NCBI GenBank assembly: GCA_044347345.1 | Contig: JBIKUX010000011.1 | Location: 1-64,000 of the forward strand | DNA from: Bdellovibrionota bacterium | Lineage (GTDB): Bacteria; Bdellovibrionota_C; UBA2361; JBIKUX01 | Direction: 5' to 3' | Length of the DNA stretch: 64,000 nt | Shown here: piece after piece, positions 1 to 7,803 of the stretch | Position numbering within the stretch: position 1 is the first letter of the stretch | Layout: each line of letters starts with the position of its first letter | The notes under the pieces: model-generated | The model's input: the letters and a program-made list of their open reading frames with translations, nothing else | What the model was told of the DNA's origin: nothing | The model's database searches: none | Position numbers and translations under genes: made by a program

Positions 1-127
1 AAGATGGTTGCAGTATCTACTCGCAATCGCGAATCTCCAAGACTTAATAACCTACTGCCGTTATTTAGTAGTAATTTTTCCTCTGAAGGAGAAAAATCCC
101 CTTCGGGACCAATAACTAAAGATATTT
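1..127. repeat. Direct repeat copy 1: exact duplicate of 3474..3600 (3' part of rsmE), truncated by the window edge
   Basis: Base-by-base identity from aagatggttgcag to actaaagatattt; the copies diverge at 128 (gtttag) versus 3601 (ctttac). Confidence 0.97.
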
Positions 128-762
128 GTTTAGATGCGAGTCTTGGGATCTTATAACTGATCAGCATATATCGATATGTTAGAATTCTCCCGTAAGCGCT
201 AGCCTCATCGCATCCACTAAGACGCTACTATGCAAGTAGCTGCCCTCCATTGAGATATTTAAAAATCACTAAGTGGGATTCCTTATAGACTAATGATAAG
301 TGGCGTTGTGTGTTGCTACTTTTTACAAAAAGAGTAGAGACTTACATTCATATTATTTAGTTAGACCTAATCGTAAAAGTAAACTGTAGTAACAGGATTA
401 TGCATGAAGGTAATTTTATACTAAAAAGGTTAAGGTAATAAATACCAATCGCAAGCATAAGATAACGGTGGCTCAAAATAAGCTTAACCTTAATCTAGAG
501 TTTAAATTTAGCAATCACTACTTACATAAAATTATTTACGCTCTCTTTGCGATAATTCCTATTTAAAGCCACGCCTACCTCGTACTGCTCGTACTTTAGT
601 ACTCATTAATCAGTGTTCTTACACCCCTGCACTAGTACCACCACCATCACTACTACTGCCCTCCTGAATCTTTAAGTATCTACTTACACTATTAAGTATA
701 AAGAGCTTCAAATATGCGTGACCTCACGTTGTAGCAGATTAGGGTTAAACTAGTTTTTTCTT

Positions 763-2019
763 TTAGAATAGAGTTAACTGCTCTGTTTTGAAGAAGTCTC
801 TGTAATTGACGGCTTCCATATCGCGAGCTTGGCTTTTGTTTAACATGTGGATTAGGCATCTGCCGATATGATACCCCATATTTACGGGAACCGCATTGCC
901 GATCTGGCGATACTGAGAAGTAATCGAGCCAGAGAACTCCCAGCGATCTGGAAAAGTTTGTAATCTGGCGTATTCTCTAATTGTTAGGGGTCGTGTCTCG
1001 CCCGGATGACAGCGTTCCGTTTGCGTCTGAGCAGGCGCGCACGTTAAAGTTAGGCTAGGCTCATCCCATGAAAGCCTTCTAGCCATACCTGTTTTACCGC
1101 CGCTTAAATGATAACTCCCTTTCATATATTCTTTTTGTAATTTCACCGGCAAATCTCTCCAATATCCACCAGCGGGCACTAGATCTAATATCTTTCTCTT
1201 GTTTTCGGAGTAAGTTTGGCCGAGCGACGGAGGGCAGTTTTCCAACGCTTCCTTTAAAGATATCGTGTAATCTCTTTCAACTGGGAATAGAATCGGCAGA
1301 TTAAGATCTTGCCGCACTCCTATAATAATTAGACGCTCTCTTTTTTGAGGAACATCCAAGTACTGCGCTCTTAGGATCCTGTAGGCGACATTATATCCGA
1401 GGTCTCTCAAGATTTTAAGAATAGTCTGAAAAGTTTTACCTCCTTCGTGATTTAAGAGACCTCTTACATTTTCCCCTACTACAATTTTTGGCTTTACTAT
1501 GTTGATACACCGAGCCATTTCGAAGAAAAGGGTTCCTCTAATATCATTAAAGCCTCTTTGGTTTCCAGCATAGCTAAAAGCTTGGCAAGGGAATCCACCT
1601 TGCACGATGTCTGCTTTAAGGCCTCTAAATTCAAGCTCTCTTACATCCTCATGAATGACATTTGCCCCCGTGAAGTTGCCTCGCAAAGTTGCTACTGCAT
1701 CTTTGTCATACTCATTCAATAGTACATGCTCTATTCCGGCATTCTCCATGCCTAATGCAGTACCTCCTGCGCCGGCAAAAAGCTCAATGCAGGTATAACC
1801 TGATTTGGTCTTCTGACTTAAAACTTTAAACTTATTTTCCGAATGTTTGCCACTATACTTCTTGTGCAGTCTTTCGAGCTCTTCAAATGAAAATAGTCGA
1901 TGATTTAACTCAGATCTTCGACTTCTTATTAAGCCCTTTTTTTCCCATCTTTTGATTGTGTCAACTGATACACCTAGATGCTCTGCTGCTTCTGCCACTG
2001 CTAATAATTTTTTCTTCAT
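763..2019 (-). CDS. dcm: DNA (cytosine-5) methyltransferase with N-terminal MerR-type HTH; M.Sau96I/M.Eco47II-like (probably GGNCC or GGWCC)
   Basis: Motif I FAGAGG, motif IV GFPCQAFS, motif VI ENV, motif VIII QKRER, motifs IX-X RPLTIREYARLQTFPD..IGNAVP. N-terminal AEAAEHLGVSVDTIKRWE HTH. Specificity inferred from recalled family resemblance of the TRD. Confidence 0.95.
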   Translation of the reverse strand: MKKKLLAVAEAAEHLGVSVDTIKRWEKKGLIRSRRSELNHRLFSFEELERLHKKYSGKHSENKFKVLSQKTKSGYTCIELFAGAGGTALGMENAGIEHVLLNEYDKDAVATLRGNFTGANVIHEDVRELEFRGLKADIVQGGFPCQAFSYAGNQRGFNDIRGTLFFEMARCINIVKPKIVVGENVRGLLNHEGGKTFQTILKILRDLGYNVAYRILRAQYLDVPQKRERLIIIGVRQDLNLPILFPVERDYTISLKEALENCPPSLGQTYSENKRKILDLVPAGGYWRDLPVKLQKEYMKGSYHLSGGKTGMARRLSWDEPSLTLTCAPAQTQTERCHPGETRPLTIREYARLQTFPDRWEFSGSITSQYRQIGNAVPVNMGYHIGRCLIHMLNKSQARDMEAVNYRDFFKTEQLTLF

Positions 2020-2030
2020 AAAGATTTTTT

Positions 2031-2065
2031 ATCAATAACCCTTGCATGGGGCAAGGGTTATTGAT
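2031..2065. promoter_or_regulatory. Perfect 15 bp inverted repeat; putative autoregulatory operator of the methyltransferase
   Basis: atcaataacccttgc-atggg-gcaagggttattgat, located 12-46 bp upstream of the MTase ATG in the divergent M/R intergenic region. Confidence 0.75.
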
Positions 2066-2280
2066 TTTGTATTCAAAGCACTTTTTTTCTAAGTCTTAGA
2101 CCTTCTCATAAGCAAAGTATCTGGTTTCTTTGGTGCGGTTGAAAAATTCTACGCCACTAATACTGACGAGGCCTTTGTCGTAAATGAATAGAATTTACTG
2201 CTCTGAAATTGGCTTAGCGAATCTATAGCTTTAAATAAGTAAACCTGTGTGCTAGCTGAGCATATTCCGAATAGACTAAT

Positions 2281-3111
2281 TTGTGTGAATATGGTTACTT
2301 AGCTTTAATGAGATCTGAAATTAAATTAACAGCTATTATTAAAGACACTGTTAGGAAGAGCATCTTAGATTACGCAGAGAGGTCTTTGCACAAAAAAGCC
2401 AAATTTCAGATTCTTGATCTAATTATCCCAAAAGAGAGAAAAATCAGGTCGATTGTTGGGGGTCTGGAAACATCGCTAGGTACTACCCTCTGGGAGCCCT
2501 TGGCTAAAGCACTCGCTAAAAACAATGGCTTTCTTGTCAAGGAGGAAAATCTAGAAGCTCCAGCTAATATGCCAGCTAATCTAGGTAATGTTTTGGCTAA
2601 TATAATCTCTGAGCGTGAACGAAGAAGCGGTGTATACGATGCGGAAAAGAGCCATGTTGAAATAAGAGAAACTTGCCAGATTTTTCAAAATTCGCGACGA
2701 ATAGAGATGTTCGTGCCTGCTCCTAAAGGATACGGAGTGGACATATGGCTAGTTAAGGACGGTATCAACTACTTCTTTGATACTAAAACTGTTCAGCCCA
2801 ACCTTGGGGCATTTACAAACTGCATGAAACAAGTTCTCCACTGGTATGCTTATTTCTACTGCAAACATCCTGATGAGAGAGCTGAGGCGAGGATTGTTTT
2901 CCCCTATAATCCGCACAGGATTGACTTCTGGGATGGTTCAATTGCACAAGGATTGCCCCTAGAAAAGAATAAAGAGGGATGGGTTGAGAATGAATTTTGG
3001 AACTTTTGCTCGGGTCATAACGACACCTACTTGTTAATTAAAAACTCCTTCAAAGAGCTACATGAGTCTAAAGAATTAGAATATGATTTAGAAAGACTTC
3101 TGGCTCGTTAG
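2281..3111 (+). CDS. Type II restriction endonuclease, TdeIII/HgiCII-like PD-(D/E)xK family (likely start ATG 2308)
   Basis: Divergent from the C5 MTase. Contains RSIVGGLETSLGT..WE, VDIWL..FFDTK (D..DxK core) and FPYNP..EFWNF, as recalled for TdeIII-family enzymes. Confidence 0.8.
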   Translation: MCEYGYLALMRSEIKLTAIIKDTVRKSILDYAERSLHKKAKFQILDLIIPKERKIRSIVGGLETSLGTTLWEPLAKALAKNNGFLVKEENLEAPANMPANLGNVLANIISERERRSGVYDAEKSHVEIRETCQIFQNSRRIEMFVPAPKGYGVDIWLVKDGINYFFDTKTVQPNLGAFTNCMKQVLHWYAYFYCKHPDERAEARIVFPYNPHRIDFWDGSIAQGLPLEKNKEGWVENEFWNFCSGHNDTYLLIKNSFKELHESKELEYDLERLLAR

Positions 3112-3418
3112 ATTAGTGCGATAAATCTAACTTGACTTGTACACTTTCCGGATATGATACGGTGATATCTTACCATAAGTGACTGAGGTATTTTGCAGTT
3201 TCTTTGATAGATATCCCGTTCTGACCGATTATAATTCCATGATGGCATCACATTCATGTGGCAACTGGTTTAAAAGACTGAGGAGATGACTTCTTGCATC
3301 GGTTGGCGACCTTAGCTGTTCAGTAAGGATCGTGTAAGTAACCATTCCGTGTAGAGCATCTGGTTTTATCCTTTGGTAAATCATAGGATGTTTTTGTAAA
3401 TACGGAAAAGTGAGGGAG

Positions 3419-4264
3419 TTAAGTTTGATTATTTGTTAATGCTTGTGAGGCTCCGGCGAGTACTCCTAGAGCGAAGATGGTTGCAGTATCTACTCGCAAT
3501 CGCGAATCTCCAAGACTTAATAACCTACTGCCGTTATTTAGTAGTAATTTTTCCTCTGAAGGAGAAAAATCCCCTTCGGGACCAATAACTAAAGATATTT
3601 CTTTACCATAAACAGGAATTTTTTCTTGATTATGGATAATTCTAAGTAAATCGATAGGTGATTTAGCTTCTGGAGACAAAGAGCACGTAATTAAGATAGT
3701 GTCTTTTGGATGATAGGTTTCAATAGCATTAGAAAGAGATGGAGAGAAATAAGCGGTAGGTATTTTGTTTTGTAAAGATTGTTTAGCGGCTTGAGACGCA
3801 AGGCTACGCCACCTAGACTCTTTGTGAATAATATTACTATCGCTAATCTTTGGGATGCTACGGTCGCCGTGCCAAGTTATTATTGTTTGGCAACCGAGTT
3901 CTGTGGCTTTCTCTATTAAAAACTCATTAATCTTACCCTTGCATAGCGCGACAAATAACCGAGTTACTATAAAAGCTGCTTGATTATTAGGCTTAACTTG
4001 ACTGGCAATGCTAGCTTGGTAATTTATCTCCACACACCAATAAGACTTTCTTGAGTCTCTTTTTAATATTCCACTAAATCGTTTATGAGAAATAGGATCA
4101 ACAACCTCGACTAAATCTCCCTCACTTAAACGAGTAACGTTTATTAAGTGATGAGTTGATTTAGAATCAAGCGGTATCGTTATACTTTGAACACCGTCTA
4201 CATTTTGTACGTTTTCTGCTGAACAAGCAGGAACAGAGCAAAATACTTGCACTCTGTGAGCCAT
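3419..4264 (-). CDS. rsmE: 16S rRNA m3U1498 methyltransferase RsmE
   Basis: HHLINVTRL, EKATELG, AAKQS, IGPEGDFS, SLG..RLRVDTA SPOUT motifs. Confidence 0.93.
   Translation of the reverse strand: MAHRVQVFCSVPACSAENVQNVDGVQSITIPLDSKSTHHLINVTRLSEGDLVEVVDPISHKRFSGILKRDSRKSYWCVEINYQASIASQVKPNNQAAFIVTRLFVALCKGKINEFLIEKATELGCQTIITWHGDRSIPKISDSNIIHKESRWRSLASQAAKQSLQNKIPTAYFSPSLSNAIETYHPKDTILITCSLSPEAKSPIDLLRIIHNQEKIPVYGKEISLVIGPEGDFSPSEEKLLLNNGSRLLSLGDSRLRVDTATIFALGVLAGASQALTNNQT
3474..3600. repeat. Direct repeat copy 2, within the rsmE 3' end
   Basis: Identical to 1..127. Confidence 0.97.
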
Positions 4265-6391: not shown

Positions 6392-7018
6392 ATGAAGCGG
6401 CGAGAAGAGCTCACATTTCTTGAGCGAATCTACGTAGTAGAGGTGCTAAAGGGCGTATGGTTAACCTTTGGGCGGCTCTTAAGAAATTTTATTCGACACC
6501 TTAAAAACTCGATTTGGGTTCGTGGTGATAATCAAAAATTAAAAGGAGCTGCAACGATACAGTATCCTGAGCAAATGAGAGCATATCCTGAAAGATATCG
6601 TGCTAGGCATCGATTAACCTTAAAAGAGAATGGGGATGTAAAATGCACAGCCTGTTTCTTATGTGCAACCGCATGCCCTGCAAGGTGTATTTATATAGAA
6701 CCTGCCGAGCATAGCGATTCTTCGATAGAAAAATTTCCGCATCGCTATGAAATAGATACTCTGCTGTGCATCTATTGTGGATACTGCGTTGAAGCTTGCC
6801 CGGTTGATGCAATTAGAATGGATACTGGGCTTCATCCTGAAGTGTATCCACCTGACCCCCGTTTATACATCGAGGATAAAGAGACTCTGATGGAGAGGTC
6901 TAGAATATTAGAAGATATAGGTAAGGAAGGCTTGCTTGAATTACATCGAGCGAAAATTCGGTCATTGGAGCAAGGTTCTAAGCCTCTAAGTGATGCTGTC
7001 AGAAAGATTGTGCGTTGA
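6392..7018 (+). CDS. nuoI: NADH-quinone oxidoreductase subunit I-like 2x[4Fe-4S] protein
   Basis: TIQYPE..RYRARH, CTACFLCATACP, CIYCGYCVEACPVDAI. Confidence 0.88.
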   Translation: MKRREELTFLERIYVVEVLKGVWLTFGRLLRNFIRHLKNSIWVRGDNQKLKGAATIQYPEQMRAYPERYRARHRLTLKENGDVKCTACFLCATACPARCIYIEPAEHSDSSIEKFPHRYEIDTLLCIYCGYCVEACPVDAIRMDTGLHPEVYPPDPRLYIEDKETLMERSRILEDIGKEGLLELHRAKIRSLEQGSKPLSDAVRKIVR

Positions 7019-7089: not shown

Positions 7090-7803
7090 CTACTTAATCC
7101 GACGAAGAAAGGGATGGGGTTTTTTAGTTGAAGGTTTTTTATTGATTGATTTGTTAACAGGTTGATTGCTGTCTTGATCTACTGCGATTTTAGATTCTTT
7201 TAAAGAATCTTTAGGCTTAATTTCACTCTCTGCATTTTTAAACGAATCTAATTGAGGTATATTAACCGCTTCCGATGACGCCCCTTCCGATGACTCCGAT
7301 GACTCCGATGACACTGACGACACTGACGACACTGACGACACTGACGACTGCGATGCCTCAGATACTACTGCTAGTATAGGAGATGCTTGTGTTGACGCTG
7401 GCTCTGTTGATGATAATGGTGTTGATGATAACGGCGTAGGAGATGATTGGGTTTCCTTTTGAACTTCAGATATAAAACCGGCAAGCAGTTCTGCCGGTAC
7501 CGAATCATCCCATTGTTGGATTGTGCCACTAGCACTGGAACAAGCCCAGATGGAATCTAATGGTAAAATGCAAGTAAAATAAGCCCCGTTAAAGAGTAAG
7601 TCTGCAGATATGCCGCTATCGTTTAATGTCATAGAACCTCTAAACAAACGGCTTAATTTCAGAGTAACGGAGGGTAATTCAGTTAAATGCTTGGGAAGTG
7701 ACAAGCCTGCGCTAGATGTATTTACCTGAACTAAGATATATTCGTCGTTAAGCATCTTCTCAATGCTTTTGCGTTTTTGGCGCCTCTTAAGGTCTATTTC
7801 CAC
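7090..7803 (-). CDS. SspB-like (ClpXP adaptor) domain with long Ser-rich linker and basic C-terminal tail
   Basis: ISADLLFNG..CILPLDSIWA resembles the SspB core; C-terminal HPFLRRIK resembles the ClpX-binding tail (LRVVK). Confidence 0.65.
   Translation of the reverse strand: MEIDLKRRQKRKSIEKMLNDEYILVQVNTSSAGLSLPKHLTELPSVTLKLSRLFRGSMTLNDSGISADLLFNGAYFTCILPLDSIWACSSASGTIQQWDDSVPAELLAGFISEVQKETQSSPTPLSSTPLSSTEPASTQASPILAVVSEASQSSVSSVSSVSSVSSESSESSEGASSEAVNIPQLDSFKNAESEIKPKDSLKESKIAVDQDSNQPVNKSINKKPSTKKPHPFLRRIK
7286..7348. repeat. 9 bp tandem repeat (about 7 degenerate units) encoding SSV/SSE repeats
   Basis: gatgactcc x2 followed by ga(t/c)gacact x4 and a partial unit. Confidence 0.9.

Follow-up and report, generated by a model that had tools for sequence, protein, structure and literature searches.

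The window analysed here is the whole stretch of 64,000 nucleotides (nt) at positions 1 to 64,000 of contig JBIKUX010000011.1 (hereafter C40) in assembly GCA_044347345.1 of a Bdellovibrionota bacterium, a genome bin of 68 contigs and 2.53 Mb. Near its left end lies a type II restriction-modification (RM) unit, composed of a DNA methylase gene (M) and an endonuclease gene (R) and located directly after the stop codon of rsmE, the gene of a 16S rRNA methyltransferase. The unit is probably a self-contained insertion in the chromosome of this lake bacterium, bracketed by two identical 182-nt copies of the rsmE end, and would belong to the class of RM genes that are inserted with a long target duplication and without a mobility gene.

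Extent and boundaries of the repeat

A sequence-only reading of the window had reported that positions 1-127 are identical to positions 3474-3600. This exact match was verified. The first mismatch is that of 128 with 3601, after which four further bases match, and an exact identity of 127 nt excludes chance. The same reading had cautioned that 127 is an assembler k-mer length and that the true length of the repeat could differ, a caution that turned out to be well placed. Every contig end of the assembly was compared with all others, and 28 of the 31 joins found were exactly 127 nt long, the remaining three measuring 37, 63 and 84 nt. Because so many joins share this length, and because base 1 of the window is also base 1 of C40, 127 is the k of the assembler and not a biological length.

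The 63-nt join links a second contig, C65, with the start of C40 (window 1-63). The sequence left of the window, which the earlier reading had proposed to inspect, is supplied by C65, including both the left flank and the rest of the left repeat copy. In reverse complement, the terminal 118 nt of C65 are identical to C40 3419-3536, and the two contigs diverge precisely where the rsmE stop codon ends. Taken together with the identity of 1-127 and 3474-3600, this match gives a repeat of 182 nt (3419-3600). The left copy is split between two contigs, its first 55 nt being on C65 and its last 127 nt on C40, and the interval between the two 127-nt copies contains the last 55 nt of rsmE (3419-3473). 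A second support for the length of 182 nt comes from a lake-water metagenome run (X1), in whose k=31 assembly (Logan contigs) a separate contig corresponds exactly to 3419-3600. As this contig is unbranched, the two copies are identical at k=31 resolution.

A large self-match of this type was found in C40 only. The 127-mers that start C7 (1-285) and C31 (1-145) recur 158 nt and 18 nt downstream, respectively, and these self-matches are short tandem repeats at contig ends. The case offers a worked example for the reading of a repeat of k-mer length at a contig start, in which the true repeat is longer than k and continues on another contig.

A candidate empty site, and occurrence of the sequence in freshwater metagenomes

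The sequence-only reading had also proposed a search for an uninterrupted, island-free rsmE site in relatives. Relatives provided none, for no other genome among those compared belongs to the same genus or family and no close relative is available; RsmE proteins from 30 same-order genomes show 30-39% identity. A candidate empty site was obtained from a metagenome. Contigs of Joint Genome Institute (JGI) metagenomes were queried with 40 nt from inside the repeat, and one contig, L024 (2904 nt), was retrieved. With 100% identity it matches 929 nt of the C65 flank as well as the 2093 nt of C40 3419-5511, and these two matches overlap in the 118-nt rsmE end common to C65 and C40. L024 leads from the left flank straight into an intact rsmE, with one repeat copy and without the island. 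A polymorphism of occupied and empty sites in the lake population is likely.

The runs in which the sequence occurs are lake-water or freshwater metagenomes (24 listed, 16 of them with at least half of the sampled words), and the island is present in all four runs compared, with listed years 2017, 2020, 2024 and 2024. Runs X15 and X16, which hold about half of the query words, were considered as island-free samples and rejected, since they are low-cover runs that contain pieces of the island; a second empty site was thus not obtained from them.

Content of the island

The island between the 182-nt copies comprises 3291 nt (128-3418) and consists of divergent M and R genes, a palindrome and non-coding DNA (Table 1). 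Gene scans and scans of open reading frames (ORFs) agree with the earlier statement that only the rsmE tail, an M/R gene pair and non-coding DNA lie between the copies, and no integrase, transposase or other mobility or replication gene was found in the island. For the R gene, an alternative upstream TTG at 2281 would give a product of 276 amino acids (aa); the databases record the form of 267 aa.

Table 1. Coordinates of the repeat copies, genes and other features at the left end of the window.
Feature	Position	Strand	Basis or remark
Left repeat copy, visible part (last 127 of 182 nt)	1..127		Exact match to 3474-3600; overlap with C65
Non-coding left arm, 635 nt, 35.9% G+C	128..762		No ORF with a family match
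M gene: C5 cytosine DNA methyltransferase of 418 aa; MerR-type helix-turn-helix at the N-terminus (aa 8-52)	763..2019	-	PF00145 E=7e-82; PF13411 E=5e-11; TIGR00675 dcm E=3e-76
Perfect 15-bp inverted repeat with 5-nt spacer, candidate operator	2031..2065		12 nt upstream of M start codon
R gene: TdeIII-family type II restriction endonuclease, 267 aa (ATG 2308)	2308..3111	+	PF09520 E=1.4e-26
Non-coding right arm, 307 nt	3112..3418		No ORF with a family match
Right repeat copy: last 182 nt of rsmE including the stop codon	3419..3600		Overlap with C65; X1 record 2 is exactly 3419-3600
Intact rsmE, 16S rRNA methyltransferase, 281 aa	3419..4264	-	PF04452 E=2e-34

Half-sites of the palindrome occur also upstream of M in two loci of candidate phyla radiation (CPR) phyla, L064 (exact; 6810-6830) and L062 (2 mismatches; 6854-6874), which are the loci with the closest full-length M homologs (63-65% identity). 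Judged from this conservation of sequence, the palindrome is likely to be an autoregulatory operator for the helix-turn-helix (HTH) of the methylase itself, common to this methylase subfamily.

No Pfam match was found in the arms when 16 stop-to-stop ORFs across or beside them were searched, the sole match being the rsmE fragment at 3-224, which belongs to the repeat. The island contains no iterons or tandem repeats. No Rfam family was identified, the only two matches being far below threshold and both within the repeat, and a scan for promoter-like sites found 6, fewer than in shuffled sequences (11.0). The arms show no similarity elsewhere in their own genome, in which the island is single-copy, and none beyond the palindrome in the 42 homologous loci described below. 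Similarity to plasmids and phages is restricted to the methylase core and is absent from the arms. A transposon-like RM unit, with inverted repeats and a short duplication, was considered and rejected, as no terminal inverted repeats join 128-200 with 3350-3418 among the 25 longest of 122 inverted pairs.

Origin and distribution of the RM pair

Homologs of the endonuclease number 375, and the closest besides the protein itself, with 65-70% identity, carry names from Tenacibaculum, Psychroserpens, Chitinophagales, Legionella and others. Relatives of R are encoded at 42 loci in GTDB genomes, distributed amongst Bacteroidota, Proteobacteria, Cyanobacteria, Spirochaetales and CPR phyla. A homolog of M lies within a few kb of R at 37 of these loci, in variable order and orientation, and most of the other five loci are truncated at a contig end. 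Within the order of the host, by contrast, R was matched in only one of 90 other genomes, and there partially and with 35% identity. The RM unit is considered to be horizontally acquired because it is rare in its own order while its relatives are spread over many phyla. Long direct repeats straddling the RM pair were found at none of the 42 homologous loci, indicating that long duplications are not characteristic of this RM family. A diverged methylase allele (P0124; 425 aa, with many substitutions) was encountered in another metagenome, on a JGI contig of 1559 nt.

Probable chromosomal integration and alternative explanations

The unit is, with good probability, integrated in the chromosome rather than present as a free circle of 3473 nt. 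Evidence from the runs consists of k=31 contigs, and the word depths of contigs are not copy numbers. In X1, the island contig (98-3448) has a depth of 10, the repeat (3419-3600) a depth of 26.3 and a contig of the C65 flank (1518 nt, ending at 3448) a depth of 10.6; the island is about as deep as the flank and the repeat about twice as deep. C40, which was assembled with read pairs, continues from the island through the repeat into rsmE. Record 16 of X15 bridges 3346-3654, including the end of the island, the repeat and rsmE, and record 24 of X16 spans 3419-3755. The C65-flank sequence ends loosely at 3419 in X1, X11 and X16. In the protein collection, the longest contig is one of 117,820 nt for each of R, M, RsmE and a DsbA-like neighbour (12, 10, 8+2 and 12 contigs, respectively), and that of the left-flank protein is a different one of 125,272 nt, indicating that other assemblies break at the left copy too. 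As regards both copies being on one molecule, the right junction is found in C40 and in X15 record 16, and the left junction only in the 63-nt contig overlap and in contig ends of 30 letters. X1 has no cover to the right of 3600, a kind of hole that proves nothing.

Several observations leave chromosomal integration short of certain. The topology is read from contigs, and the assembly graph is the same for an integrated unit and for an empty chromosome accompanied by a circle. The comparison of island with flank coverage, which the earlier reading had proposed, could be made in X1 and gave nearly equal values (10 and 10.6), yet these depths and that of the repeat (26.3) fit integration and a circle alike and are not copy numbers. 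X1 is possibly the source sample and hence not independent, and its island contig enters the repeat by 30 letters on each side, one below the bridging bar of 31. The bridging contig of X15 comes from about 4x cover, so low that branches may be missing and a k=31 assembler may then pass straight across a repeat. The overlap of C65 and C40 is 63 nt, short of the full k. The empty site is represented by one short contig, L024, and could be mimicked if the loop had collapsed in an assembly of low cover. Finally, a JGI contig of exactly 3600 nt (3473+127) carries only the C-terminal 134 aa of R (protein P0121); it could be the loop or a rotated circle as output at k=127, or else an allele with a broken R gene.

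The first alternative is a free 3473-nt circle, made up of the island and one 182-nt copy, that exists as an excised circle or tiny plasmid beside an empty chromosomal site, the join in C40 being a path chosen through a graph loop. It would account for a left copy that stands at a contig start with a length of exactly k, for the existence of the empty-site contig and for the 3600-nt contig with its cut R gene; the X1 depths are equally compatible with a flank and a circle, and small plasmids with dcm-type methylases exist (matches H1-H3 and H7; 4-7 kb). It is nevertheless unlikely. The island holds no replication initiator, iterons or plasmid-like DNA, and its plasmid matches concern the methylase core only. 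A non-replicating molecule would not persist near the depth of the flank in four of four runs from 2017 to 2024. In addition, an assembler using read pairs led the island into rsmE, apparently as another assembly did (the 117,820-nt contig), and the bridge of island, repeat and rsmE recurs in X15 record 16.

Two further explanations concern the origin of the repeat and of the island. The unit may be a decayed or non-autonomous integrative element with the rsmE 3' end as its attachment site, whose tyrosine or serine recombinase has been lost or acts in trans and which rebuilt rsmE in the way that tRNA genes are rebuilt by tRNA-targeting islands. A repeat that ends exactly at the rsmE stop is what would be expected of an element-borne replacement gene end, and Furuta et al. 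(PMC2853133) describe integrase-bearing RM units that lie in tRNA genes. Such an element is rather improbable here, as the island ORFs include no recombinase gene or recognisable remnant of one, and no inverted-repeat core is present at the ends among the 25 longest of 122 inverted pairs. Moreover, none of the 30 same-order genomes carries an additional rsmE 3' piece on its rsmE contig, none of the 42 homologous RM loci has the straddling repeats, and 182 nt of perfect identity far exceed what a recombinase core needs. A chimera of strains or organisms, in which the island would derive from another lake genome sharing the 182 nt, has a very low probability. The genome is a metagenome bin, and repeats longer than k invite misjoins; yet an exact match of 182 nt to this rsmE end in an unrelated genome is implausible when the nearest RsmE proteins are only 30-39% identical, the island and its flanks co-occur in all four runs compared, and the G+C content of the island (39.7%) is close to that of the genome (40.2%).

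Depletion of GGNCC and age of the insertion

GGNCC is assumed here to be the specificity of TdeIII, which was not confirmed in the TdeIII literature searched. Depletion of words was computed for the whole genome against a maximal-order Markov expectation. Among the 16 words of the same form, GGNCC shows the strongest depletion, with 1715 occurrences observed versus 2682 expected (obs/exp 0.64, z -18.7). It is absent from the island and occurs once in each repeat copy, as GGACC at 106-110 and at 3579-3583. This depletion suggests long exposure of the lineage to such enzymes. Other words are also depleted genome-wide, namely CCNGG (obs/exp 0.76), GATC (0.64), GGCC (0.77) and CTGCAG (0.58), and together these depletions suggest a long history of restriction pressure.

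The sequence-only reading had regarded the unit as a recent arrival, and this part of it stands only partly. The collapse of the two copies into one unbranched unitig and the 100% identity of the empty-site flanks speak for recency, but the island is present in four of four runs and its G+C content is that of the genome. The genome-wide depletion of GGNCC likewise sits uneasily with a very recent arrival and counts against this aspect of the proposed history, although earlier systems could account for it.

Proposed function and mode of insertion

The methylase would protect the DNA of the host and may set its own level through the HTH, while the endonuclease would cut unmethylated incoming DNA and would penalise loss of the unit. 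Homologous recombination of the host at the 182-nt repeats could produce a precise deletion, yielding an empty site as in L024 and a 3473-nt circle, or could lead to amplification.

For the entry of the unit, a single crossover of a circularised incoming copy within the rsmE end may be preferred, and a staggered break with fill-in would be the less favoured route. The preference derives from the exact coincidence of the repeat boundary with the rsmE stop codon. A duplicated segment that reaches the end of the gene keeps the gene whole, so that selection can account for a boundary lying no earlier than the stop codon, but not for one that coincides with it. For a random staggered break, a boundary exactly at the stop would be about a 1-in-100 coincidence, a figure that is a rough estimate and was not computed. 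The exact boundary would be explained by a single crossover of a circular copy in a conserved gene end, or by a gene-rebuilding attachment site. A general recombinase-free route of entry may be imagined, in which an RM unit that brings a conserved gene end with it forms a circle and enters by one crossover in that end, the host gene being always rebuilt; this generalisation is speculative and is given a low probability. If it is true, a lake population with occupied and empty alleles, whose flanks are 100% identical, would be a natural system in which to follow the proposed 'virus-like' cycle of RM units, that is, their insertion, amplification and excision as a circle.

Flanking genes

The fragment of rsmE contained in the left copy (window 3-224, minus strand, continuing on C65) is joined in frame with 14 codons of the island that include an ATG. 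A 73-aa C-terminal peptide of RsmE is conceivable as its product; the fragment is probably dead. On the plus strand of C65, at 230-1486, lies the gene that was immediately downstream of rsmE before the insertion; its product of 418 aa has a zinc-ribbon-like CxxC pair at the N-terminus and membrane segments at the C-terminus. The insertion puts 3.5 kb between rsmE and this gene, and could have changed transcription if the two were formerly co-transcribed. Further to the right, at window 7280-7369, a tandem array of 9-nt units, in which a 27-nt register recurs in 7 overlapping copies, is rich in GAT and GAC codons and presumably encodes an acidic repeat.

Comparison with known systems

The unit adds to an already described class of RM insertion, and knowledge of RM function is unchanged by it. 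Insertion of RM genes with a long target duplication is said to have been described first by Nobusato et al. in 2000. In sections of Furuta, Abe and Kobayashi (2010; PMC2853133), such insertions are defined by R and M within the insert, an insert of less than 20 kb, a duplication of more than 30 bp, the absence of another mobile element and a comparator with a single uninterrupted target. Here both R and M are present, the insert has 3291 nt, the duplication has 182 nt, no mobility gene was found and L024 serves as comparator, which bears out the earlier view that the type II RM unit is minimal and flanked by a long target duplication, as known from Helicobacter comparisons. The cases of Furuta et al. 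have repeats of 46-423 bp and come from many phyla, some of the repeats overlapping the 3' end of a gene (Figure 3 legend; PMC2853133). The earlier description of rsmE as an unusual target does not hold in this light, since the gene is uninterrupted and duplications overlapping a 3' end are among those already published (PMC2853133). According to the same sections, the mechanism of insertion is unknown, long repeats permit amplification, and release and re-infection are unproven (PMC2853133).

The present unit shares with this class an R and M pair alone in a short insert, the lack of a mobility gene, repeats far beyond the duplications of transposons and a single copy in an otherwise identical comparator. 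It differs in that the host is an uncultured freshwater bacterium, the comparator is one metagenome contig instead of a finished genome, the topology is taken from assemblies, and the duplication stops exactly at a stop codon. With regard to amplification of an RM unit between long direct repeats, for which PMC2853133 cites its reference 84, the architecture is likewise one that permits unequal recombination, but there is no sign of amplification here, the depth of the island in X1 being about that of the flank.

The TdeIII RM system is TDE0911 of Treponema denticola, and in H. pylori PeCan4 a TdeIII-like pair has taken the place of a Type III mod gene beside an insertion sequence, as given in extracts of PMC3467074 and PMC12878829. 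The endonuclease described here matches the Pfam family RE_TdeIII over its full length and is paired with a C5 methylase, and the TdeIII family moves between phyla. The likeness is nevertheless that of a family match only, and the best R homologs are 65-70% identical.

Islands and prophages that target the 3' ends of genes such as those of tRNA and tmRNA also have repeats that consist of the 3' end of the target gene and end where the gene ends, and leave the target intact. In contrast to these, the present unit has no integrase or excisionase, its repeat is long and perfect, and its target is a protein-coding gene. In C5 methylases of the SsoII/EcoRII type, an N-terminal HTH represses the promoter of the methylase gene itself. 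The methylase of the present unit similarly has an HTH fused at its N-terminus and a palindrome just upstream of its start that is conserved with its closest homologs, but its HTH is of the MerR type and the palindrome is a candidate operator only.

The unit is a clean addition to the class of RM insertions with long target duplications: it comes from an uncultured freshwater lineage, combines a duplication of 182 bp with the lack of a recombinase, and may be accompanied by an empty allele within one wild population.

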